From positions 5,829-69,828 of the forward strand of contig JBFELU010000002.1 in the NCBI GenBank assembly GCA_041551965.1: 64,000 nucleotides of DNA, in the 5' to 3' direction. Positions 11,408 to 51,477 of this stretch are shown here, in pieces (the stretch's first letter is position 1; every line of letters begins with the position of its first letter). Position numbers and translations under genes: made by a program. The notes beneath the pieces are model-generated. The model was not told where the DNA came from and did not search any database. It worked only from the letters and a program-made list of their open reading frames with translations. This DNA comes from Acidimicrobiia bacterium (GTDB lineage Bacteria > Actinomycetota > Acidimicrobiia > Spongiisociales > UBA11373).

Positions 11408-14400
11408 TCAGCCGCCAACGGTGATCGTGAAGATCTGCACGGCCGAAACGTCGATCCCACCGTCGGCGGTGCCGCCGTCGTCGCGGATCCGGATCTCGAG
11501 GGTGGCCGTGCCGATGCCGACCGCGACGGGAGTGAAGGTGAGGGTCCCATCACCGGCCACTGCGGGCAGCACATCGAAGAGACCCGGGTTGTCGTTGGCA
11601 GTCACTTCGAAGGTGAGCACCTGCCAGGCCTCATCCGGGGGACCGGCGACGATCCCGGTTCCCCAGGCGGCCGAGTAGGCGCCCGAACCTTCGGTCACCG
11701 TCACGTCGGGACCCTTGGTGAACCGGGGAACGTCGTTCACCGGCGTCACCACGATGGTGAGCATCACGGTGGGAGAGGTGTCCTCGCCGCCGTCTGCGGT
11801 CCCGCCGTCGTCGCGGAGCCGGATACCGATGAAGGCGGTGCCGGCGGCGTCGGCGGCGGGGGTGAAGCTCAGCGTGCCGTCGAGGGCGACGGCCGGGGGC
11901 GTGGCGAACAGGTCGGCATTGGAGTTGGCCACGACCTCGAAGGAGAGCGCCTGGCCGGCCTCGTCGGCCGGACCGGCGGTCATGCCGGTGGCCCAGGCCG
12001 CGGCATGGGCGCCCGAGTCCTCGGCGATCACCACGTCGAAGCCCCGATCGAAGGCGGGGGCGTCGTTCAACGCGCCGACCGCCACCGTGACCGTGGCGGT
12101 GGCGTATCCCCCGAGACCGTCGGTGATCGAGTAGGTGAAGGTGTCGGTGCCGGAGAAGTCGGCCGGAGGCTCATAGCGATAGCTGCCGCCGCCCACATCG
12201 GTGACCGTGCCGCCCTGAGCGGTCGCCACATCGAATCCCGACAGCGTCACCGGATCCAGATCGGCATCGGTGTCGTTGGCCAGCCAATCGCCCGCGTCCG
12301 AGAACACGATGGCCCCGTCCTCGAAGACCGGGAAGGGTCCGTCGGAGGTCGCGACCGGCGGGTTGTTCGTGGTGGCGTTGTTGGCGCCGCCCACGCTCGT
12401 CACCCGGGTCCCGAAGGCATCGGTGTCGATCGTGAGGGCCGCAGCGGCACAGGTCGCCGCCCCGGAGGTTGCCGGCTCCCAGCAGAAGCTGTCGTCGGCG
12501 TCCTGACCGTTGGGGGCGAGAGACAGCGATTGGCCGAACGCGACCGGGATCAGCGCCCCCTCGTTGTTGGGCAGCGGATCCCAGACCCCGAGGGCGTCGG
12601 GCGGGTTTCCGTTGCGGTTCGCCGCAGTGTCGGGCCCCCAGGCCACGAAGTCGACCAGTTCGTATCCCTCGTCGTACAGCCACAGCTCGTCGCCGGCGGA
12701 ATCGAGGAGCGTGGAGCCGCCGGCCCACAGCTCGAGATCGGTCCCGCCCACCACGTTGGTGAAGCCCGGGTTCGTCGTGGTCTGGTCGACCCCCAACCAC
12801 AGCACCGCATAGCCGCCCGCCGGGATCACGCTCCCGCCGGGGAAGGCATAGGTGAACGAGGCGGGAGCGTCGAAGGACCCGGTGATGTGGTCCGAATCGG
12901 ACAGCATCCACCCCGACACGTCGAGCGGGTGCCCGGAGGCGTTGTAGAGCTCGACGAACTCGTCGTTCTCGATGATGCCTTCCAGTCCCGTGCTCTGCTC
13001 GAAGAGAACCTCATTGATCACGGCCCGGCCCGCTTCCGGCGACAGGACGTAGTCGGTCACCGTCACGGTGACGGTCGCCGTGTCGGTCAGCGCACCGTCG
13101 GTGACGTCGTACGTGAAGGTGTCGACCCCGATGAAGGTGCCGTTGGGGGTGTAGGTACACCCGTTGGCGTCACATGTCACGCTGCCCTGAGCGGTGGCCG
13201 TCGGTCCGGACGGCACGATGCTGAGAGCGTCGCCGTCGGCGTCGGTGTCGTTGTCGACCAGTTCGGCGGCCGGGATCACCAGCGTGGCGACGAGGGCCAC
13301 CTCGAAGTCGGCCGCCGTGTCGCCGCCGTCGGGATCATCACCGGCCAGCGGGGCGTCGGCGACCGGGGTCACCGCGATCAGCACGGCGCCGGTGGCCGGA
13401 TCGGTGCCGTCGGTGACCGAGTAGGTGAACGTGTCGGCCCCGGCGAAGTCGGCGGGCGGGTCATAGCGGTACGACCCGGCGCCGAGATCGGTGACCGTGC
13501 CCCCGGCGGCGGTGATCGCATCGAACCCGGTGAGGGTGATGGCGCCGCCCTCGATGTCGGTGTCGTTCCCCAGCCAGTCGGTGGCCGCGGTGAAGGTGAG
13601 CGGGGTGTCCTCGGCGGTGGTGTACCAATCGCCGGCGGCGTTGGGGGCGTCGTTGACGGCCGACACCGTGACGGTGACCGTCGCGGTATCGCTGTCGGTG
13701 CCGTCGCTCACGGTGTAGGTGAAGGTGTCGGTCCCGCCGAAGTGGGCCGGCGGGGTGTAGGTGTAGGTGCCGTTGCCGTGGTCGACGACGGACCCGCCCG
13801 CGCTGGAGATCCCGTCGAAAGCGCTCACCGTGAGCGGATCGGCGTCGGGATCGGTGTCGTTCCCCAGCCAGTCGGTGGCGGCATGGAACAGCTTGGGAGT
13901 GTCCTCGTCGGTGGCCGCCGAGTCGTCGGTCGCTTCTGGTGGGTCGTTGACCGCACCGACGCTCACCGTCACGGTGGCGGTGTCGGTGCCGCCTGCTCCG
14001 TCGGACACCGTGTAGGTGAAGGTGTCGCTGCCGTTGAACCCTGCCGCCGGGGTGTAGGTATAGGTGCCGTCGAGGTTGTCGACGATGGTGCCGCCCGCGG
14101 TCGACGCGGCATCGAACGCCGTGATGGTGAGCGGGTCGTTCTCGGGGTCGGTGTCGTTCCCCAGCCAATCGGTCGAGGCGGTGAAGACCTTGGGGGTGTC
14201 CTCGTCGGTCGAGGCGGTGTCGTCGACGGCATCGGGCGGATCATCGACGGCGGTGACGGTCACCGTGACGGTGGCGGTGCCGGTGTTCCCGGCGGCGTCG
14301 GTGGCGGTGTAGGTGAAGGTGTCTTCGCCGGAGAACTCGGCGGCCGGGGTGTAGGTGTAGGAGCCGTCCAGGTTGTCGACGATGGTGCCGCCTTCCTTCG

Positions 14401-17398
14401 AGGCGGTGTCGAACTCCTTGATCGTCAGCGTCTCTCCATCGTCGTGGGTGTCGTTCCCCAGCCAGCTCGTCGAAGCGACGAAGGTGAACGCAGTGTCCTC
14501 GGTCGTCGTGGCGGTGTCGTCGACGGCCTTCACCGGATTGACAAACGGGTCGACCGTGACCGTCACCGTTGCCGAGGCACACTTGCCACCGGTGTCGCAG
14601 ATCTTGTAGACGAAGGTGTCGGTGCCCTCGAAGCCGTCGTCGGAGGTGTAGGTGACCTTCCCGTCTGAGGGGACGGCGGTCCCGTCTCCGGGCTGCCCCT
14701 TGATGCTCAAGGTGGCCGCATCGAGCTCACCGTCGATGTCGCTGTCGTTGGCGAGCACATCGACGGTCACCGGCTCTCCCGATTCGGTGGTGGCCGTGTC
14801 GGCCACGGCCGTCGGTTTGTCGTTCACTTCGGTGATGGTGATCGTGACGGTTGCCGAGGCGGTGCCGCCGCGCCCGTCCGAGATCGTGTAGCCGAACGTC
14901 TGAGTGCCGAAGTCCTCCGCGTCCGGGGTGTAGGTGAAGGTGGTCCCCGTCCTGGTGAGCGTCCCCTTCTCCGGATCGGTGCTCGAGGTGATGGTGAGCA
15001 AGTCGCCGTCGGGATCGGAGTCGTTGGACAGCGGAGTGATGACGACCGGTCCTCCGTCCTCGGCGACCGTGGCCGCGTCGTCGGCCGCCGACGGTGGGTT
15101 GTTGGGGTCCTCCTCGACCGTGACCTCGATGGTCACCACGGCCGAGGCCGTCCCGCCGTTGCCGTCGTCGATCACGTAGCCGAACGTGTCGAGAATGAGC
15201 CCGCTCTGGGTGGGCCCGAAGACGGGGGGCGTGTACAGGCAGGCGCCGGCCTCACACGACACGGTGCCGCCGAGCGCCGAGAACGAGTCCGGCGTGGGAG
15301 TGAGCGTATCCCCCTCCGGGTCGCCGTCGTTGGTGAGGATGTCGATTGTGACGGCGACACCTTCGATGGTTGCGCCACCGTCGGGCTCGGCAAAGGGAGG
15401 ATCGTTGACGGGTGCGACCGTCACGGTCACGATGCCTTCGGCGCACGCTCCACGCAGGTCGCAGACGCCGTAGAAGAAGGTCTCGACGCCGGACACCTCC
15501 GGGTCGGGCACGTAGCGGAGCGCACCGTCGAGGGGCATCGCCGTGCCCAGCGTCGGGGGGACCGCCACGAACAGGGTCCCCGGATCGAGTTCGTCCTCGG
15601 GGTCCTCGTCGTTCGACAGAGCCGGGATGACGACCGGCACGTCTTCGTCGGTCTCGGCCGAGTCGTCACCGACCATCGGAGGGTCGTTCACCGGGAGGAC
15701 CTCGATCATCACGGTCGCCACGCCGCCCAACCCGGCGACGTTCTCCACGCGGTAGCGGATCTCCGCCATGCCGAACCAGTTCGGCTCCGGCGTGAAGAGG
15801 ATGCCCTCGGGCAGCACCTCCGTCGTGCCGTGCTCGGGGCCCACGATGACGACCAGGGTCGCCGGATCGAGGCCCAGATCATCGAGATCGTTGGCGAGCA
15901 CGTCGACGAGCACCGGCACGTCCTCGTCGATCACGGCCTCGTCGTCCACCAGGCCGGGTGGTGCATTCGGCGACGAAGACGAGAGCAAGAGCTCGATGAG
16001 AGCCACCGGTTCGCCCTCCGGTCCCATGATGAGGACCGCCAGCCGGTCCTCACCGTCGAAGCCGGGGCCGGGCGTGTACGAGAGGATGCCACCTCGGATC
16101 GTCGCGGTCCCCCATGTCGGAGCATCCCAGATCTCTGCCGCCAGCCCCGCCGCGAGTTCCGACGGATCGAGGACTTCGATGTCGGTCGTCTCCTCGAACA
16201 GCACCCCGATCTCCACCTCCGCCCGTCGGGCATCCCCGAGCTGGATCAGCGGAACGGTCGTAGTGCTGGCGATCGTGACTTCTTCAGCTGGCAGCGGCGG
16301 GAGAGAGATCTCCGGTTCCACATCGGGGGGAGCGATCACCCCGGCACCGGCCAGAGCCAGTGCCGCCGAGGCCGCCACCGACGCCATGCCCACTCCGGCG
16401 CCTGCGCTCCGGAGGAACGGGAGCTGACCGAGCAACGAAGCGGGCCCGGCAACCCAGCGCAGCCGGCTCGGGGCGATGCGCAGGAAAGCCCGGACCACAT
16501 CGGCGTCGAATTGCCCGCCGGCGTTGCGGGCCAGTTCCTCGCGAGCCGCCGCCGCCGACAGGGGCTTCTTGTGGGATCGGCCCGAGGTCATCACGTCGAA
16601 GGCATCGGCAACCGCACAGATGCGGCCTGCCAGCGAGATCTCCTCGCCGGTCTTGCCGTCGGGGTACCCGGTTCCGTCGAAGCGTTCGTGGTGCTCGCCG
16701 ATCGCCCCGGCCCAGTCGCCGAGCCACTCCCGGAGCGGGCCGCACAACTCGAGGCCGTGCTGCGGATGCTGCTCGATCTTCGCCCACTCGGCATCGGTCA
16801 AGCTTCCGGCCTTGCCCAGGATTCCTTCGCTGATTCGAAGCTTCCCGATGTCGTGGAGGGTGGCCGCCCACCCCAGCTTCCCAAGTGATGCTTCATCGAG
16901 GCCGAGCTCTCGGCCCATCAACTCTGCATACGCCGCCACCCGGCCCCGGTCGCCGAACCGGCCGTGCTGACGTACCGCACTCGTGAGCAACTCCCCCAGC
17001 GCACCGTCGAGATCTCCGGGATCCAGGTTGCCGAGTCCGGCCAGATGATCCTCGACGGATCTTCGCGACCGCCGTGCGACCTGCAGACGTGACGGGGCTT
17101 CGCCGGGGAACTCGAGAGTCATCCCCAGCAGCGACGCCAGCGGTCCCAGGGGCCGAAGCAACGTTCGGATCGCAAACAGGCCGGCACCCGATGCCGCGAC
17201 CACGGCGCCCCACCACCCAGCCTGCTGGAGCAGACCGTCGGGGGCCGGCGCGAACCGAGCGGCGGCGACTGCAGCACCGGCGGCGCCTGCCACCGGCAAG
17301 AGCGCCGTCAGCGCCCGCACGCCGCGTGCCGGCCACGGACGCTTCTGCCACCGTTTGGCCGCGCCCCCGGATTCCTGAGGGACTTGATCCGTCATCAC
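11408..17398 (-). CDS. Giant multidomain membrane protein: N-terminal 2 TM helices, cytoplasmic HD-GYP phosphodiesterase domain, third TM helix, then ~1600-aa array of cadherin-like/VCBS-type tandem repeats with an inserted lamin-tail domain (LTD)
   Basis: Single uninterrupted 1996-aa ORF. Hydrophobic helices at about aa 27-48 and 60-80. HD-GYP signatures: LHDIGK (aa ~181), HPQHG, and EHHERFDGTGYPDG (aa ~236), spanning roughly nt 16483..17056. A third hydrophobic segment follows (GVGMASVAASAALALAGAGVIA, aa ~334-356). About 12 repeats of ~95 aa are delimited by VNDPP, VNDAP, VNDKP and VDDPP motifs, with ...TDWLGNDTD...DGTYTYTP..F.G.DTFTYTV.DG....TATVTVTV..VND.P in each. An LTD (VINEVLFEQSTGLEGIIENDEFVELYNASGHPLDVSGWMLSD) lies at about nt 12636..13019. 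GC content and codon usage match neighbouring genes. Confidence 0.8.
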   Translation of the reverse strand: MMTDQVPQESGGAAKRWQKRPWPARGVRALTALLPVAGAAGAAVAAARFAPAPDGLLQQAGWWGAVVAASGAGLFAIRTLLRPLGPLASLLGMTLEFPGEAPSRLQVARRSRRSVEDHLAGLGNLDPGDLDGALGELLTSAVRQHGRFGDRGRVAAYAELMGRELGLDEASLGKLGWAATLHDIGKLRISEGILGKAGSLTDAEWAKIEQHPQHGLELCGPLREWLGDWAGAIGEHHERFDGTGYPDGKTGEEISLAGRICAVADAFDVMTSGRSHKKPLSAAAAREELARNAGGQFDADVVRAFLRIAPSRLRWVAGPASLLGQLPFLRSAGAGVGMASVAASAALALAGAGVIAPPDVEPEISLPPLPAEEVTIASTTTVPLIQLGDARRAEVEIGVLFEETTDIEVLDPSELAAGLAAEIWDAPTWGTATIRGGILSYTPGPGFDGEDRLAVLIMGPEGEPVALIELLLSSSSPNAPPGLVDDEAVIDEDVPVLVDVLANDLDDLGLDPATLVVIVGPEHGTTEVLPEGILFTPEPNWFGMAEIRYRVENVAGLGGVATVMIEVLPVNDPPMVGDDSAETDEDVPVVIPALSNDEDPEDELDPGTLFVAVPPTLGTAMPLDGALRYVPDPEVSGVETFFYGVCDLRGACAEGIVTVTVAPVNDPPFAEPDGGATIEGVAVTIDILTNDGDPEGDTLTPTPDSFSALGGTVSCEAGACLYTPPVFGPTQSGLILDTFGYVIDDGNGGTASAVVTIEVTVEEDPNNPPSAADDAATVAEDGGPVVITPLSNDSDPDGDLLTITSSTDPEKGTLTRTGTTFTYTPDAEDFGTQTFGYTISDGRGGTASATVTITITEVNDKPTAVADTATTESGEPVTVDVLANDSDIDGELDAATLSIKGQPGDGTAVPSDGKVTYTSDDGFEGTDTFVYKICDTGGKCASATVTVTVDPFVNPVKAVDDTATTTEDTAFTFVASTSWLGNDTHDDGETLTIKEFDTASKEGGTIVDNLDGSYTYTPAAEFSGEDTFTYTATDAAGNTGTATVTVTVTAVDDPPDAVDDTASTDEDTPKVFTASTDWLGNDTDPENDPLTITAFDAASTAGGTIVDNLDGTYTYTPAAGFNGSDTFTYTVSDGAGGTDTATVTVSVGAVNDPPEATDDSAATDEDTPKLFHAATDWLGNDTDPDADPLTVSAFDGISSAGGSVVDHGNGTYTYTPPAHFGGTDTFTYTVSDGTDSDTATVTVTVSAVNDAPNAAGDWYTTAEDTPLTFTAATDWLGNDTDIEGGAITLTGFDAITAAGGTVTDLGAGSYRYDPPADFAGADTFTYSVTDGTDPATGAVLIAVTPVADAPLAGDDPDGGDTAADFEVALVATLVIPAAELVDNDTDADGDALSIVPSGPTATAQGSVTCDANGCTYTPNGTFIGVDTFTYDVTDGALTDTATVTVTVTDYVLSPEAGRAVINEVLFEQSTGLEGIIENDEFVELYNASGHPLDVSGWMLSDSDHITGSFDAPASFTYAFPGGSVIPAGGYAVLWLGVDQTTTNPGFTNVVGGTDLELWAGGSTLLDSAGDELWLYDEGYELVDFVAWGPDTAANRNGNPPDALGVWDPLPNNEGALIPVAFGQSLSLAPNGQDADDSFCWEPATSGAATCAAAALTIDTDAFGTRVTSVGGANNATTNNPPVATSDGPFPVFEDGAIVFSDAGDWLANDTDADLDPVTLSGFDVATAQGGTVTDVGGGSYRYEPPADFSGTDTFTYSITDGLGGYATATVTVAVGALNDAPAFDRGFDVVIAEDSGAHAAAWATGMTAGPADEAGQALSFEVVANSNADLFATPPAVALDGTLSFTPAADAAGTAFIGIRLRDDGGTADGGEDTSPTVMLTIVVTPVNDVPRFTKGPDVTVTEGSGAYSAAWGTGIVAGPPDEAWQVLTFEVTANDNPGLFDVLPAVAGDGTLTFTPVAVGIGTATLEIRIRDDGGTADGGIDVSAVQIFTITVGG

Positions 17399-28422: not shown

Positions 28423-29244
28423 TCATCGTGCAGCTCCTGTCGGTCCAGCCCTGAAGCCGACCGAGACCCGCTCGGCCAAAGCGAACACCTCGTCGGCCCT
28501 CCCTCCTCGGACCGCGATGGCCATCAGACCGTACGAATCGGTGTGCACCAGGCCGACGCCCTCCCCGACATCGGCGTATGCCATCACCCAGGGCAGATCG
28601 TGGCTCGTCGAACCGACCCGGACCTTCACGACGTCGCCCGGGACGAGACCCGCGGCCTCCAGGTCGGCGGGCCCGATGTTGGTCTGGGCGTTGCCGAATG
28701 AATCGATCCACCACACTTCTCCCTGGACGAAACCGTCGCCTTGCTCGGGCAGCGGCAGGAGCAGCGGCATCAGCGTCCCGGTATCGACGGGAGCCCCGAG
28801 GTCTCCGAGCTCTGCCTCTCCCGAGGCGAGCACGGCGGCCGCCGGCGCAAAGACGTCGCGGCCCTCGAAGGTGGCTCCCTGTGACGGGAGCCGATAGGCG
28901 GGCGCATCGAGAACCACCGCCCGGCCCACCCCTCCGACCACCGCCACGGCCGGAGCCAACAGGCCGTTGTCGGGCCCCACGAAGTGACCCCACTCGGTCT
29001 CGAGTGCCACCGGGCGCCTTCCCCCACCCACTCCGGGATCGACGACCCCCAACACCACGCCCTCGGGCAGGTACTGCACCGCCCGGAGCAGCGCCAGGGC
29101 CCCGGCCCGCACGTTGCCACGCGGAACCCCGTGGGTCACATCGATCACCCGAATCTCCGGGGCGATGCGGGCGATCACACCGTGGACGACGCCGACGAAC
29201 TCGTCGGCGTGGCCGAAGTCGGAGAGGAACGAGATCGAGGCCAT
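28423..29244 (-). CDS. S-adenosyl-L-methionine hydroxide adenosyltransferase family protein (DUF62)
   Basis: MASISFLSDFGHADEFVGVVHGVIARIAP...DVTHGVP...GVVDPGVGG...VGPDNGLL is the SAM hydrolase/fluorinase-family fold, 273 aa. Confidence 0.75.
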   Translation of the reverse strand: MASISFLSDFGHADEFVGVVHGVIARIAPEIRVIDVTHGVPRGNVRAGALALLRAVQYLPEGVVLGVVDPGVGGGRRPVALETEWGHFVGPDNGLLAPAVAVVGGVGRAVVLDAPAYRLPSQGATFEGRDVFAPAAAVLASGEAELGDLGAPVDTGTLMPLLLPLPEQGDGFVQGEVWWIDSFGNAQTNIGPADLEAAGLVPGDVVKVRVGSTSHDLPWVMAYADVGEGVGLVHTDSYGLMAIAVRGGRADEVFALAERVSVGFRAGPTGAAR

Positions 29245-29337
29245 CGCCGGCGGAGGATACCCGGCCCGCCGAAGACATCACCCCGATACAATCCGCGACC
29301 CGACGAGGAGGCGGCGATCAACGACATCCACGCCGGT

Positions 29338-30201
29338 TTGCTGGATGACCTCACCCGCCGCCGCGGCGTGGTCATGCTGATCGGGGCGCGCGACACAGGC
29401 AAGACCTCGTTCGGTCTGCGCCTGCTCGAGGCGGCGGTGCACGCCGGGAAGACCGCCGCCTACGTCGACGCCGACGTCGACCAGACCACCACCGGACCAC
29501 CGGGATGCGCCGGTCTCCACTTCGTTCGGGACCGTCGCGACCTCGAGGATCTCGAGCGGGCCGATGCGCTCCAGTTCGTGGGCTCGATCACACCCGAGGG
29601 CCTCGTGCTCCAGCAGGTGGTGGCGACTGCAGCGCTGGTGGATCGAGCCCGCGATGAGGCCGACATCGTGGTCGTGGACACCACCGGCGTCGTCTCCGGG
29701 GTCACCGGCCAGACCCTCAAGTACCACAAGATGGAGCTGTGCCGACCCGACATGGTGGTGGGTCTGCAGCGGGGTGCCGAGTTGGAACCGCTCATCGGCA
29801 TGCTGCGGAGGTTCTTCTCCGCCGACGTCGAGATCGCCCCGGTGGACCCCGAGATCCGGACGCCGTCACCCGATGAACGGGAGGCGGCTCGCACCAAGGG
29901 ATTCACGGCCGCCTTTGCCGAGCCGCAACAGCGATGGCGGGTACGCCCGACCGTATTCGCCCCGACCCTCCCCGCCGGTCTGGATCTCGCCCGCCTCGAT
30001 CGAGTGCTGGTCGGCGCCCTCGACGGCACCGGATGGTGCCTCGGTCTCGGCGTGCTCGAGTTCGCCGACGACGTGCTGCGCGTCAGCACCAACGCCGGCG
30101 ACGGGATGCGGGGCTTGCGGCTGGGCTCGATGACGGTCGATACCACGACCTACGAGGTGCAGCGCATAAAGCTGCGCGACCTCATGTTCGGGATCGACTG
30201 A
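29338..30201 (+). CDS. P-loop NTPase of the Clp1/Grc3 polynucleotide 5'-kinase-like family
   Basis: Walker A GARDTGKTSFG, then VDADVDQT, then IVVVDTTGVVSG, which matches the Clp1_P arrangement. The start is uncertain: TTG 29338, GTG 29371 or ATG 29377; the track's ATG 28984 extension overlaps the divergent gene. Confidence 0.55.
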   Translation: MLDDLTRRRGVVMLIGARDTGKTSFGLRLLEAAVHAGKTAAYVDADVDQTTTGPPGCAGLHFVRDRRDLEDLERADALQFVGSITPEGLVLQQVVATAALVDRARDEADIVVVDTTGVVSGVTGQTLKYHKMELCRPDMVVGLQRGAELEPLIGMLRRFFSADVEIAPVDPEIRTPSPDEREAARTKGFTAAFAEPQQRWRVRPTVFAPTLPAGLDLARLDRVLVGALDGTGWCLGLGVLEFADDVLRVSTNAGDGMRGLRLGSMTVDTTTYEVQRIKLRDLMFGID

Positions 30202-30498
30202 GGAGCGCGAAAGAATCCGCCCCAGAAACTTGTCGACACCGCTTGTGCACAACCCCCTGTGGATGAGTGTGGATATGTGGAAAAGTCCCCCGAAGGCGCT
30301 CCACCAAGGGCAAGGTATGGTGAGATGGGTTCGATTCAATGCGCGACATCGCGAAATCGACGTTCCGGGAGCCCCGTTGACGACACCCTCGTCCCCCAAT
30401 AGGGTCGGCCGCGCAAGGCCCGAGGTGCCGATGCGAGACGGCGCTCCGTTTGGGGAAGTGCGGGGCGGCGGCCGTGGAGGTTCGTCGGGCCTTCGCCC

Positions 30499-31020
30499 AT
30501 GATCAGCGGGATTCGGCTCCCGGTGCGATGGTCGACCATCGGTTTCCCGGCCGCCTTCCGTGCCGAGGTCATCACGATCACCGACGGCTCACCCGCATGG
30601 AGTTGGGAAGGGACCATCCCCGAACTCGGGATCCCCACCTTCCGCCCCCCGACGGCCGACGTCGTCCCCGGGTGGGGCGTGGACCATCTCGTCCTGCTCG
30701 TGCCCACCATCGAGATCTCGGTGCTCGACATCGAGCGGGCCGGCTACCGGGTCCGGCGGCGGGCGGAAGTCCGCGGCAGCCCGGTCGCCTTCTTCCGCGT
30801 GGGCCCAGTGCTCGAGGTCATCGAGGCCGCGGTGCCCGAGCCGACCTTGTACGGGATTGCGCTCTGGACCCGGGAGGATCTGAGTGAGGTCGCCCGACGC
30901 CTGCGCTCGACGGGCACCGACCTGGGGGGCCCGAGGCGGGCGATTCAGCCGGGCCGGGAGATCCTGACGGTGCGCGGCCTCGGAGCCGGTCTCGCCGTCA
31001 TGACGCCGCCGACGGCATGA
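30499..31020 (+). CDS. VOC/glyoxalase-like domain protein (tentative)
   Basis: 173 aa with high GC3; the GVDHLVLLVPTIEISVLDIERAGYRV segment resembles a VOC fold. It follows a 300-bp lower-GC non-coding region. Confidence 0.5.
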   Translation: MISGIRLPVRWSTIGFPAAFRAEVITITDGSPAWSWEGTIPELGIPTFRPPTADVVPGWGVDHLVLLVPTIEISVLDIERAGYRVRRRAEVRGSPVAFFRVGPVLEVIEAAVPEPTLYGIALWTREDLSEVARRLRSTGTDLGGPRRAIQPGREILTVRGLGAGLAVMTPPTA

Positions 31021-45922: not shown

Positions 45923-46251
45923 TGGCTGAGACGATTCTGAAGCGTCATCCGTTTCGTGCCGCAGCCTGGGGGTTCCTCCTCGGGTTGGCGGTGGTCCTCT
46001 ACCTGACCGTGGTATGGCCGGTCATCGCCTTCGACAACTGGACGACCGTGGCGGTGAAGGCCGTCATCGTGATCCTGGCCGCAATGGCACTGAGCGTCCT
46101 GTGGGGTTTGTTCGGGCCGGCCAAGAAGCTGCGCGGGGCATCGGCCCCCCCGCCGGTCGACGACGGTCCACCACCCCCACCGGTCGACGACGGTCCACCA
46201 CCCCCACCGGTCGACGACGAACCGCTACCACCACCGAACGAGAGCGAATAG
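45919..46251 (+). CDS. Membrane protein with C-terminal proline-rich PPPPVDDG x3 repeats
   Basis: Two TM helices, then the tail ASAPPPVDDGPPPPPVDDGPPPPPVDDEPLPPPNESE. The start is one of the clustered ATGs at 45910, 45919 or 45922. Confidence 0.55.
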   Translation: MMAETILKRHPFRAAAWGFLLGLAVVLYLTVVWPVIAFDNWTTVAVKAVIVILAAMALSVLWGLFGPAKKLRGASAPPPVDDGPPPPPVDDGPPPPPVDDEPLPPPNESE

Positions 46252-46284
46252 TCTCCCGCCGGTGATGAGACCGGCGAGGTCTGC

Positions 46285-47936: not shown

Positions 47937-48042
47937 AGTCCCAAGATTTTGTGGCACTTCCTTCGCCGGACCACAACATCTTGTGGGTGTGGACAACTTG
48001 GGAAGAGCGGGTTCGGCCCGCAGGGAGACGGGAGGAGCGCAC

Positions 48043-51000
48043 ATGGGTTCGGCGAGCGGACTTCGCATCGGCCGGTTGTTCACCAAGGCAGACGAGGACC
48101 CCCTCGACAGCGTCTCGTGGAGCCGGCGCGACTCCAAGATCACCAACCCCGACGGATCGGTGGTCTTCGAGATGAACGATGCCGAGATCCCGACCGCCTG
48201 GTCCCAGGTGGCCGCCGACATCATGGTCTCCAAGTATTTCCGGAAGGCCGGTGTCCCCCAGTTCGATCGCGACGGCGCCCCGATCCTCGCCGACGACGGC
48301 TCGCCCATCCTCGGGCCGGAACGATCCGCCCGGCAAGTCATCACGCGGCTGGCTTCGACGTGGCGGTGGTGGGGTGAGCGTTACGGCTACTTCGCCTCGG
48401 AGGCCGACGCGGCCGCCTTCGAAGACGAGCTCTGCCACATGCTCGTCCACCAGATGGCGGCACCCAACAGCCCGCAGTGGTTCAACACCGGGCTCCATCA
48501 CGCCTACGGTCTGACCGGGCCGCCGCAGGGTTTCTGGTATGTCGATCCCAACACCGGCGAGCTGTGTGAGTCCCCCGACTCGTACAGCCGCCCCGCCCCC
48601 CACGCCTGCTTCATCCAGTCGATCAACGACGACCTCGTCAACGAGGGCGGGATCATGGACCTTTGGGTCCGTGAGGCTCGCCTCTTCAAGTTCGGGAGCG
48701 GCACCGGGACCAACTTCTCCACGCTGCGCGCCGAGAACGAGCGCCTCTCCGGCGGCGGCCGTTCCTCGGGCGTGATGTCGTTCCTCAAGATCGGCGACCG
48801 GGCCGCCGGCGCCATCAAGTCGGGAGGCACCACGCGCCGGGCCGCCAAGATGGTGATCCTCGACCTCGACCACCCCGACATCGAGGAGTTCATCGACTGG
48901 AAGAAGGAAGAGGAGCGCAAGGTCAGGGCCCTCATCGCGGCCGGCTATCCGGCCGATTTCAACGGAGAGGCCTACCAGACGATCTCCGGCCAGAACTCCA
49001 ACAACTCGGTCCGGGTCGCCAACGATTTCCTCGACGCCGTCATCGGCGACGAGGACTGGGAACTGCGCGCGAGGACCACCGGCGGGGTGATGAAGACGGT
49101 GCGGGCCCGGGACCTTTGGCGCCGGATCGCCGAAGCCGCCTGGGAGTGTGCCGATCCCGGGGTGCAGTTCGACACCACCATCAACGAGTGGCACACCGCT
49201 CCGGCCGGGGGCCGGATCAGGGCCTCCAACCCGTGCTCCGAGTACATGTTCTTGGACGACACGGCCTGCAACCTCGCCAGCCTCAATCTCGTGTCGTTCT
49301 ACGAGGACGACACCGGCAACTTCGACATCGAGGCGTACAAGCACGCCATCCGGCTGTGGACCGTCGTCCTCGAGATCTCGGTGACCATGGCCCACTTCCC
49401 GTCCCAGGAGATCGCCCAGGGTTCGTACGACTACCGCACCCTGGGTCTCGGCTACGCCAACCTCGGATCGCTCCTCATGCGAAGCGGCATCCCCTACGAC
49501 TCAGACGAAGGGCGCGCCATCACCGGGGCCCTCACCGCCATTCTCACCGGGGATGCCTACGCCACTTCGGCCGAGATGGCGGCGGTGCTGGGACCTTTCC
49601 CCCGATTCTCGGAGAACCGGGACTCCATGTTGCAGGTGATGCGGAACCACCGGCGGGCGGCCTACGACGCCGACGCCTCGGCGTACGAGGGAATCAGCTC
49701 GAAGATCGTGGGCATAGACCCCGATCACTGTCCGGCCCCGCTCATCGAGGCGGCCCGGACGTCTTGGGATGCCGCCGTGGAGCTGGGAGAGCAGTACGGC
49801 TACCGCAACGCCCAGGCCACGGTGCTCGCTCCGACGGGGACCATCGGCCTCTTGATGGATTGCGACACGACCGGCGTCGAGTCGGACTACGCCCTGGTGA
49901 AGTTCAAGAAGCTGGCCGGCGGCGGGTACTTCAAGATCGCCAACCAGTCGATCGAACCGGCCCTCCGAGCGCTCGGGTACACCGAGCCGCAGCGGCGCGA
50001 CCTCGTCGAGTACGTCATCGGGACGATGCGGATCGACGGTGTGCCACACATCAACCGCATCTCGCTGATCGAAGCCGGGCTGACCGAAGCCGAGGTCGAT
50101 GCCATCGAGACCACCCTGCCCGGCGTCTTCGATCTGCGGCATGCGTTCAACTTCAATGTGCTCGGGGCCGAAGCCATGAACCGTCTCGGCATCGACGCCG
50201 ACGAAGTGGCCGCTCCCGGATTCGACCTGCTGGAGCGGCTCGGTTTCACCCAACGCCAGATCGACGAGGCCAACGCCGTCATCTGCGGCCACCAGACCGT
50301 CGAGGGAGCCCCCCATCTCTTCGACGAGCACCTGGCGGTCTTCGATTGCGCCAACCGCAACGGGAAGTTCGGCACCCGCTACATCGACCCAACCGGCCAC
50401 ATCCGGGCAATGGCGGCGGCACAGCCGTTCATCTCAGGGGCCATCTCGAAGACCATCAACATGCCCCATGAGGTCACCATCGGTGAGATCGAGGACGCCT
50501 ACCGGCTGTCGTGGGAGCTGGGCCTGAAGGCCATCGCCCTCTATCGAGACGGGTCCAAGGCCAGCCAGCCGCTGTCGTCGGCCACCTCCGGCGAAGGGGA
50601 CCACACCGAGGACGAAGACGAGGCCCTCAACGAGGCGATCGACGCCGAGGCCCGGGTCGTCACCGGCGTCTTCGCCCCCGGGGTCAGCCCCACTGCGGCA
50701 TATCAGGGAGTGACCCGACCCCGGTTCCTGCTGCCGGCTCGCCGCCGCGGGTTCACCCAGGAAGCTCGGGTCGGCGGCCACAAAGTCTTCCTCCGCACCG
50801 GCGAGTACGACGACGGGACGCTGGGAGAGCTGTTCATCGACCTGGCCAAGGAGGGCGCCACCCTCCGCGGGATCCTTTCGTGCTTTGCCATCGCCGTCTC
50901 CAAGGGCCTCCAATACGGCGTGCCGCTGGAGGAGTTCGTCGACACGTTCACGTTCCACACGTTCGAGCCTCGCGGGCTGGTGGAGGGCCACCCCAACATC

Positions 51001-51477
51001 AAGATGGCCAACTCAATCGTCGACTACGTGTTCCGATCCCTCGGGCTCGAGTATCTGGGCCGCACCGATCTGGTGCAGGTCCCACCCGAGGTTGAGCTGC
51101 CCGAGCCGCCGAGCGGGCTGGCGGTGGATGCCGGTCTCCAGCTGGAGCTGACCGACTCACCCCCGATGCCCACCGAACCGGCTCCCATGCCGCCCACCGC
51201 CCCGATCTCCCATCCGGCGGTGACGGGCGATGAGGACATCAATGCCAACGGCACCAACGGGCACCACACACCGATCGTCGAGCAGCCATCCATTGCGGTG
51301 CGCTCCTCGAGTGATGCCACCGTCGCTGATGCCACCGGCCAGACCGCATCCGTCCAATCGGCTCTAGGGTCGATGATGGGCGATGCCCCGTTGTGCGATA
51401 CCTGCGGACACATCACGGTCCGCAACGGCTCGTGCTATCGGTGCCTCAACTGCGGCAACTCGATGGGCTGCAGCTGA
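48043..51477 (+). CDS. nrdJ: Class II (adenosylcobalamin-dependent) ribonucleoside-diphosphate reductase
   Basis: 1144 aa with NrdJ family blocks (RVANDFLDAVIGDEDWEL, NPCSEYMFLDDTACNLASLNL, TMRIDGVPHINR) and the C-terminal Cys cluster CDTCGHITVRNGSCYRCLNCGNSMGC. The start MGSASGLRIG at 48043 follows GGGAGGAG. Confidence 0.9.
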   Translation: MGSASGLRIGRLFTKADEDPLDSVSWSRRDSKITNPDGSVVFEMNDAEIPTAWSQVAADIMVSKYFRKAGVPQFDRDGAPILADDGSPILGPERSARQVITRLASTWRWWGERYGYFASEADAAAFEDELCHMLVHQMAAPNSPQWFNTGLHHAYGLTGPPQGFWYVDPNTGELCESPDSYSRPAPHACFIQSINDDLVNEGGIMDLWVREARLFKFGSGTGTNFSTLRAENERLSGGGRSSGVMSFLKIGDRAAGAIKSGGTTRRAAKMVILDLDHPDIEEFIDWKKEEERKVRALIAAGYPADFNGEAYQTISGQNSNNSVRVANDFLDAVIGDEDWELRARTTGGVMKTVRARDLWRRIAEAAWECADPGVQFDTTINEWHTAPAGGRIRASNPCSEYMFLDDTACNLASLNLVSFYEDDTGNFDIEAYKHAIRLWTVVLEISVTMAHFPSQEIAQGSYDYRTLGLGYANLGSLLMRSGIPYDSDEGRAITGALTAILTGDAYATSAEMAAVLGPFPRFSENRDSMLQVMRNHRRAAYDADASAYEGISSKIVGIDPDHCPAPLIEAARTSWDAAVELGEQYGYRNAQATVLAPTGTIGLLMDCDTTGVESDYALVKFKKLAGGGYFKIANQSIEPALRALGYTEPQRRDLVEYVIGTMRIDGVPHINRISLIEAGLTEAEVDAIETTLPGVFDLRHAFNFNVLGAEAMNRLGIDADEVAAPGFDLLERLGFTQRQIDEANAVICGHQTVEGAPHLFDEHLAVFDCANRNGKFGTRYIDPTGHIRAMAAAQPFISGAISKTINMPHEVTIGEIEDAYRLSWELGLKAIALYRDGSKASQPLSSATSGEGDHTEDEDEALNEAIDAEARVVTGVFAPGVSPTAAYQGVTRPRFLLPARRRGFTQEARVGGHKVFLRTGEYDDGTLGELFIDLAKEGATLRGILSCFAIAVSKGLQYGVPLEEFVDTFTFHTFEPRGLVEGHPNIKMANSIVDYVFRSLGLEYLGRTDLVQVPPEVELPEPPSGLAVDAGLQLELTDSPPMPTEPAPMPPTAPISHPAVTGDEDINANGTNGHHTPIVEQPSIAVRSSSDATVADATGQTASVQSALGSMMGDAPLCDTCGHITVRNGSCYRCLNCGNSMGCS

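Follow-up and report, generated by a model that had tools for sequence, protein, structure and literature searches.

Clusters of DnaA boxes are known outside replication origins. In E. coli, datA and DARS1/2 are such clusters away from oriC, and datA lies beside a stable-RNA (tRNA-Gly) operon. The DnaA box, TT(A/T)TNCACA, tolerates change at positions 3 and 5, and its position 6 is normally fixed; in the arrays of E. coli oriC the boxes are spaced by 11 nt. DnaA also regulates promoters, among them those of dnaA, nrdAB and sda. Box clusters outside oriC have been described in B. subtilis as well (PMC2533591), and gidAB-parAB of P. aeruginosa is transcribed from a DnaA-regulated promoter (PMC13438810).

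As for small structured RNAs, SRP RNA carries the universal helix-8 motif GGUCCGGAAGGAAGCAGCC. Acidimicrobiia abound in soil, freshwater and marine samples; nearly all of them are uncultured, and to our knowledge no regulatory RNA has been characterised in them. In other Actinobacteria, Ms1 is an abundant RNA of ~230-300 nt that is flanked by HAD-hydrolase and oxidoreductase genes (PMC9130861).

The locus described here lies in the window, by which we mean the whole stretch of 64,000 nucleotides of Acidimicrobiia DNA that was analysed. Its gap at 30202-30498, 297 nt between a stop codon at 30201 and an ATG at 30499, is one conserved non-coding functional unit of Acidimicrobiia, made up of a box array, a promoter and a hairpin RNA gene. 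Its parts and the two adjoining genes are the following.

Stop codon at 30201: end of a CLP1_P-domain P-loop gene, left of the gap.
30206-30212, forward strand: CGCGAAA motif 1, left edge of the module.
30230-30238, forward strand: box 1, TTGTCGACA, a DnaA-box-like 9-mer with the consensus TTGTCnACA.
30243-30252, no strand: box 2, TTGTGCACAA, a perfect palindrome that reads TTGTGCACA from either strand.
30258-30266, reverse strand: box 3, TGTGGATGA, reading TCATCCACA; module consensus CTGTGGAT, or nnATCCACA in DnaA-box orientation.
30268-30276, reverse strand: box 4, TGTGGATAT, reading ATATCCACA, which is also its consensus; TGTGGATA on the module strand.
30276-30284, reverse strand: box 5, TGTGGAAAA, reading TTTTCCACA; consensus TTnTCCACA (TGTGGAnAA on the module strand).
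30285-30376, no strand: spacer of ~94 nt, free in sequence and constrained in length.
30350-30356: second, weaker copy of CGCGAAA, within the spacer.
30377-30382, forward strand: -35 hexamer TTGACG.
30400-30405, forward strand: -10 hexamer TAGGGT, of the TAnnnT type.
30407-30498, forward strand: small RNA gene, a rod-like hairpin of ~88 nt with a predicted 5' end at ~30411-30413.
30415-30423, forward strand: 5' arm of the basal helix P1 (AAGGCCCGA), pairing with 30485-30493 (TCGGGCCTT).
30448-30465, forward strand: invariant apical segment GTTTGGGGAAGTGCGGGG, a 10-nt loop UUGGGGAAGU with its closing stem.
30499-31020, forward strand: 173-aa gene directly 3' of the RNA; context, outside the conserved module.

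Like datA, DARS and the B. subtilis clusters, this locus holds several DnaA-box-type 9-mers close together at a fixed non-origin site, the strong boxes flanking weaker ones. It differs from them in that the array is 56 bp long, is phase-locked to a promoter ~100 bp off and is always linked to a small RNA gene; besides, no IHF or Fis site is evident at the array, where DnaA binding is putative. It also resembles the DnaA-regulated promoters in having DnaA-type boxes upstream of a promoter. In the known cases, however, the boxes lie over or right beside a promoter that makes a protein-coding mRNA, whereas here the array precedes a small RNA gene by 130-185 bp.

A preliminary description, made from the letters of the window, had called the gap a non-coding island of about 300 bp with lowered GC, and this holds: its local GC is 0.585-0.605 against 0.685 window-wide. 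The window as a whole (68.6% GC) has a strong third-position GC bias. The same description took the gap for the longest in a genome otherwise 95% coding. Three bigger apparent gaps resolve into two missed genes and one overlap from an over-extended start call, so that this is plausibly the window's longest true gap, apart from a 362-nt one at 45923-46284; the coding share comes to ~93% in a codon-usage gene map, as a lower bound. One ORF of 90 codons (30230-30502) runs through the gap, and was rightly said to be unlike real genes. Its GC3 is 0.66, against 0.82-0.92 in real genes, and its frame is broken within 10-50 codons in most of the 79 module sequences; a small protein from this ORF was therefore rejected and, like the 6C-type RNA considered below, has next to no chance of being the explanation. 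A tRNA/tmRNA scan found nothing.

To the left, the longest ORF of the CLP1_P gene (28984-30201, forward strand) overlaps a divergent SAM_HAT gene (28423-29244, reverse strand) by ~260 nt, and homology to relatives was tested from 29350 onward; its true start therefore probably lies well downstream of 28984. The SAM_HAT gene is followed on the left by rex, ~2 kb from the gap. A Rex operator was considered for this reason and dropped, because the central 8 bp of the 18-bp Rex site are missing from TTGTGCACAA. To the right, the 173-aa gene is followed by genes for a GT4 glycosyltransferase, a GNAT protein and asparaginase II. The best match of the glycosyltransferase is MshA (TIGR03449), at 398 bits and under the cutoff of 462.5. 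The 173-aa protein has no Pfam or NCBIfam match, and its gene occurs in only five loci (the window, L001, L008, L015 and L057), each time just 3' of the RNA and in the same orientation. Its ATG in the window abuts the RNA hairpin, so that no ribosome-binding site would fit outside the stem.

With the CLP1_P protein as query, 58 related loci were retrieved, the nearest genomes all being Acidimicrobiia or Actinomycetota MAGs. The module of ~295 nt was matched over ~290-300 nt in 44 of them by nhmmer and blastn (45 of 59 with the window), and a 17-nt probe from its most conserved part reached at least 120 metagenome loci. The full module is represented by at least 79 distinct sequences among the related loci and the metagenome matches listed. 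Plasmid and phage collections gave no match to the module. Its parts follow one another in a set order: CGCGAAA, 21-22 nt, boxes 1-5, a spacer of ~94 nt, TTGAC, 17 nt, TAnnnT and a conserved segment of ~90 nt. In 42 of the 44 matching loci the element is opposite in strand to the CLP1_P gene and shares its strand with the MshA-like gene; L001, L017 and the window carry all of it as one inverted block. The earlier judgement that the region is regulatory or a non-coding RNA rather than coding agrees with the conserved promoter and the structured RNA found there.

CGCGAAA at the left edge is near-invariant in the 79 sequences, and 21-22 nt separate it from box 1. The ORF upstream (YbjN or MshA-like) spans this motif in most loci and ends just before box 1; in the window the motif is non-coding, which indicates that it is conserved as DNA. 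It could be an A-tract/UP-like element, a second protein site or an insertion relic. The two copies of CGCGAAA (30206-30212 and 30350-30356) lie ~144 nt apart and bracket the array and spacer.

The array consists of one forward and four reverse boxes, three of them strong (TTnTnCACA type) and two weak. All five 9-mers have at most one mismatch to TTGTCCACA or TTATCCACA and fall within 56 bp, which hold half of all near-matches to these two sequences in the 64 kb of the window; at least three 9-mers that fit TT(A/T/G)TNCACA lie within ~100 bp outside oriC, as expected of a DnaA-box cluster. Across the 79 sequences, the box consensus is nearly fixed at positions 4-9 and variable at position 3, and position 5 differs in box 2. 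In box 1, T1, T2, A7, C8 and A9 are near-invariant, and because position 6 varies it is a weak DnaA-box match. Box 2 fits TTNTNCACA in 74 of 78 sequences. It is swapped for CTGTGGACAA or CTGTGGATAA in eight genome loci, the replacements holding exact reverse complements of TTGTCCACA or TTATCCACA, and in some lineages its position holds a perfect TGTGGACAA or TGTGGATAA. Box 3 keeps its core ATCCACA in 74-77 of 78 sequences and is free at positions 1-2, while box 4 begins 10 nt after it in 78 of 79. Box 5 begins 8-9 nt after box 4, with which it shares one base; its position 3 is fully degenerate and its other positions are conserved.

Most of these elements had been seen before, with some differences in detail. 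TTGTCGACA and the perfect palindrome TTGTGCACAA are both present, each one position away from where they had been placed, and what had been called tandem palindromes makes better sense as a pair of 9-mer boxes facing opposite ways. The direct repeats are likewise real and were misplaced by one; they comprise three TGTGGA units (at 30258, 30268 and 30276) instead of two and a half. They are far from chance, since two tandem TGTGGA-N2-5-TGTGGA arrangements are observed at the array against 0.01 expected from shuffles. In 1.15 Mb of retrieved loci, tandem TGTGGA is absent outside the module, and the boxes are conserved in the 79 sequences. The resemblance to DnaA boxes survives comparison with 78 other sequences.

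As RNA, the box region and spacer gave no consensus pair in RNAalifold on either strand. Therefore the array is a DNA-level element, and it is likely to be a protein-binding one that is coupled to the RNA promoter. As for the protein, motif resemblance points to DnaA, a proposal for and against which the balance is about even. Three properties count against a textbook DnaA operator: the start-to-start spacings of 15, 10 and 8-9 nt, the variation at position 6 in box 1, and the distance of the array, at about -185 to -130 from the predicted start site. The serious rival, improbable but by no means far-fetched, is another regulator of TGTGGA-like direct repeats, such as a lineage-specific transcription factor, MraZ or a BldC-family protein. 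Direct repeats 10 and 8-9 nt apart suit multimers that bind repeats, the array lies ~100 bp upstream and in phase, and boxes 3 and 4 are without the TT of the DnaA box; on the other hand, boxes 1, 2 and 5 match the whole 9-mer, with TT kept at positions 1-2, and degeneracy falls on position 3, where DnaA boxes also have it. MraZ binds GTGGG-type repeats with a 10-bp period, but its known sites are upstream of mraZ and not of small RNA genes; the literature on MraZ gave nothing useful for the array. BldC was rejected as the binder because its repeat, AATTxxxx(C) (PMC5859096), does not fit. If DnaA binds the array, replication control is joined to RNA-based regulation; if it does not, the array is the operator of an unknown repeat-binding regulator. 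The array offers a clean, testable DnaA-box-like cluster outside the origin in Actinomycetota.

A cluster of DnaA-box-like sites in a lower-GC stretch could also mark oriC or a second origin, which the preliminary description had thought improbable. This reading is highly improbable indeed and was rejected on skew, gene content and the absence of an AT-rich element. First, cumulative GC skew falls on both sides of the gap and shows no turn at 30.3 kb, and gene strands are mixed on both sides without a switch. Second, oriC is usually linked to dnaA or dnaN in Actinobacteria, and tblastn with an E. coli DnaA query gave no dnaA match, either for the window or for the related loci retrieved up to that point, in line with the earlier remark that none is nearby; the ORFs checked have respiratory and metabolic Pfam domains, none related to replication. 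Third, there are only five boxes, and the spacer, at 0.61 GC, has no AT-rich unwinding element, with no DnaA-trio-like or trinucleotide repeats seen. Finally, the orientation of the module flips between relatives. A local bump in the GC skew elsewhere in the window comes from the internal DNA repeats of a gene at 11408-17320 (reverse strand), which encodes a 1970-aa protein with an N-terminal HD/HD_5 domain, ~10 Big_9/cadherin-like repeats and a lamin-tail domain.

Downstream of the boxes, the spacer has no conserved sequence among the 79 sequences; its median folding z is -0.2 and its median GC is 0.61. It was considered as a terminator of the upstream operon, and this was rejected since the folding is not significant and a terminator scan was empty. 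Its length is another matter. The distances from box 5 to the -35 hexamer cluster at ~90, 100-101 and 110 nt, those from box 3 at 100, 110, 120 and 131 nt, and the phasing has a circular resultant of 0.81 at a period of 10-11 nt. These steps of ~10 nt represent perhaps three or four independent indel events among related sequences, and the phasing is therefore supporting evidence, not proof. The array and promoter are moreover kept together through inversions. Length steps of a helical turn and joint inversion together argue that an array-bound protein complex would work on the RNA promoter from a fixed face of the helix.

These two properties also bear on the possibility that the array is a DnaA-buffering locus of the datA, DARS or B. 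subtilis type, which titrates or recycles DnaA to time initiation; the small RNA gene would then be a mere neighbour, or its transcription would tune the locus. Five clustered DnaA-box-like sites outside any origin, kept at one chromosomal position, are what such a locus would show, and E. coli datA adjoins the stable-RNA (tRNA-Gly) operon. A titration site, however, would need neither to accompany the RNA promoter always, inversions included, nor to keep helical phase with it through the spacer, and we consider pure buffering unlikely.

The promoter itself is of the sigma-70/sigma-A type, with a TTGACA-like -35, a spacing within 16-18 nt and a TAnnnT -10, all conserved. The TTGA of the -35 hexamer never varies, and 57 of 79 sequences extend it to TTGAC; 76 of 79 have 17 nt between the hexamers, and the -10 variants listed (TACTGT, TAGGTT, TAGGGT, TATCTT and others) all fit TAnnnT. 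A strict promoter scan with the E. coli-type consensus omits it because its -10 follows the actinobacterial TAnnnT pattern; TAGGGT matches TATAAT at three of six positions. The promoter call rests on conservation. The suggestion that the gap holds a regulated promoter or an sRNA was thus well aimed: a conserved promoter is present and is plausibly regulated by the boxes.

Downstream of the promoter, 30410-30497 folds as a single long hairpin with an MFE of -52.9 kcal/mol and a z of -3.5. The entire gap, taken as 299 nt, was rejected as one structured RNA, with a z of -0.04. In a plain MAFFT alignment, RNAalifold recovers the basal helix and the apical stem. Base pairs of P1 show compensatory changes among 97 sequences, including AU/GC in 44/43, GC/CG/AU in 54/25/10 and AU/GC in 44/39. 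A structure of 24 pairs gives 92.6% paired cells and 12 compensatory pairs in 45 sequences, and 93.3% and 13 in 97 distinct sequences. In the latter, covariation is 0.391 against 0.170 in shuffled alignments, and slide controls are at most 0.11; none of 500 shuffles reached the observed covariation score or percentage paired, and 9 of 500 reached the number of compensatory pairs. This alignment of 97 sequences was fitted to the model, and one made by MAFFT only gives the same picture. The columns of the apical segment are invariant in 45 sequences, its loop is G-rich (UUYGGGGAAGUG), and used as a probe it led to ~80 further RNA loci among the metagenome matches listed. Both this loop and the basal helix are kept across deep divergence.

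A covariance model, R1, finds exactly one copy per locus and scores 73.7 bits in the window, on the sense strand. Sense scores of 67-91 bits greatly exceed antisense scores of 19-37, so the RNA strand is the one downstream of the promoter. We hold with high confidence that this is a real structured RNA with its own promoter, the ends being predicted ones. Rfam 15 at gathering threshold gave no hits in the window, the models including 6C, or in 20 further RNA-bearing loci; for 30000-30700 at E <=10, only two chance-level hits to archaeal snoRNAs were returned (E 1.8 and 6.6). Literature searches on the loop sequence, on small RNAs of Acidimicrobiia and on RNA motifs of mshA/ybjN returned nothing relevant. 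This is a new and well-supported small RNA family, with no Rfam entry, ~100 distinct representatives and strong covariation.

Like 6C (RF01066), the RNA is actinobacterial, short and conserved, stands alone and would work via invariant loop nucleotides. 6C, however, has two hairpins with C-rich loops, whereas the RNA here is one long hairpin with a G-rich loop, has other synteny and gives no covariance-model match. It is also like the small bacterial SRP (4.5S) RNA in being a rod-like hairpin of ~90-100 nt with conserved internal loops, a GGAA-containing apex and a strong promoter of its own, but it is without the helix-8 motif and the Rfam SRP models do not match. With Ms1/6S RNA of Actinobacteria it shares that it stands alone and was found through conserved synteny; identity with it was rejected on size and synteny, as the RNA here has ~88 nt and lies in an mshA-ybjN-proC-SAM_HAT-rex block.

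The preliminary description had itself proposed a 6C-like sRNA, with C-rich loops near 30286 and 30393. The GTCCCCC...GGG strings on which this was based do exist (30285-30291 and 30391-30397), but neither forms a conserved hairpin: the first lies in the unconserved spacer and the second between the -35 and -10 hexamers, both C-runs being at unconserved positions without consensus structure, and neither 6C nor any other usable Rfam hit appears even at E <=10. A 6C-like RNA there was wrong in place and kind, since the RNA is at 30407-30498, a segment to which the description had drawn no special attention, and has a G-rich apical loop. The proposal is as good as eliminated, together with the protein from the ORF at 30230-30502.

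The invariant G-rich loop and paired stretches suggest that the RNA may pair with C/U-rich targets or be recognised by a protein. The loop complement, CACTTCCCC, has 23 matches in the window against 21 expected, that is, no enrichment.

The RNA also occurs without the box array, in ~30 metagenome loci among the matches listed, with R1 scores of 40-70 bits. In these related uncultured lineages it lies between ybjN (PF10722) and proC and has a different promoter. The block order in these loci is RsiG, HTH, MshA-like, YbjN, RNA, ProC, phosphatase, HTH_17 and SAM_HAT, and extends in L179 to an acyl-CoA synthetase and Rex; the window holds part of the same block reversed, with the MshA-like gene, SAM_HAT and rex and the RNA between them. 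The RNA keeps a set place within an mshA-(ybjN)-...-SAM_HAT-rex gene block. Since sister lineages have the RNA without boxes, the RNA as such does not require them. In some box-less lineages a promoter-like pair TTGTGC-N19-CAGTCA/T replaces TTGAC-17-TAnnnT, and in nine loci (L105, L119, L120, L099, L143, L134, L125, L080 and L068) a mini-hairpin containing CCGACGGG lies ~10-35 nt 5' of the R1 match. The box-less lineages may have a longer RNA or use another sigma factor.

Proximity to the next gene raises the question of whether the hairpin is a cis-acting leader or riboswitch, for the 173-aa gene here and for proC elsewhere. In the window the ATG at 30499 comes directly after the RNA, a same-strand gene begins within 200 nt in eight of 45 loci, and proC is next in most box-less loci. 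In the other 37 of the 45, however, no ORF starts on its strand in the next 200 nt, which makes the RNA a stand-alone gene and not a leader. Nor does any Rfam riboswitch match, and the RNA is inverted relative to proC, and indeed to both of its neighbours, in L099 (5168-5253), L143 (684-770) and L179 (6459-6544). Finally, proC has a -10-like motif of its own: in L098, L113, L105, L068, L090 and L120, TAnCCT stands 6-7 nt before its start codon and 40-60 nt downstream of the RNA, and this position suggests that proC mRNA is leaderless, its promoter overlapping the 3' end of the RNA gene. A leader function is thus very unlikely. The RNA has its own promoter and no target gene in cis, and its orientation flips independently of the neighbouring genes. 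Several inversions in place have turned the RNA gene and promoter around between unchanged neighbours, in box-bearing and box-less lineages alike; relative to its neighbours, the RNA gene therefore behaves as an independent cassette.

The reading of the whole that we favour, somewhat more probable than all others together, is a stand-alone small RNA with its promoter under the control of a phased DnaA-box-like array upstream. The sigma-A-type promoter (TTGACG, 17 nt, TAGGGT) would transcribe the rod-shaped hairpin RNA of ~88 nt within 30407-30498, and a protein complex on the array, ~100 bp upstream, would act on it from one constant helical face. Were the array protein DnaA, the output of RNA would track the replication-initiation state. 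The RNA itself would act in trans through its invariant G-rich loop, which would pair with C/U-rich targets or bind a protein. More speculatively, and with rather less chance of being right, DnaA may assemble on the five-box array to gate transcription of the RNA, while conversely this transcription may tune a DnaA-buffering site like datA or DARS. If so, post-transcriptional regulation would be wired directly to replication-initiation status, and both a first DnaA-controlled small RNA and a first DnaA locus outside the origin would be defined for Acidimicrobiia.

Elsewhere in the window, the sole perfect TTGTCCACA is at 47988-47996 on the reverse strand, on the first codons of a gene at 47983-51477 that encodes a class II (B12-dependent) ribonucleotide reductase and follows a 174-nt gap. 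The nrd genes are regulated by DnaA in other bacteria. A single perfect 9-mer of this sequence per 64 kb is about what chance would give.
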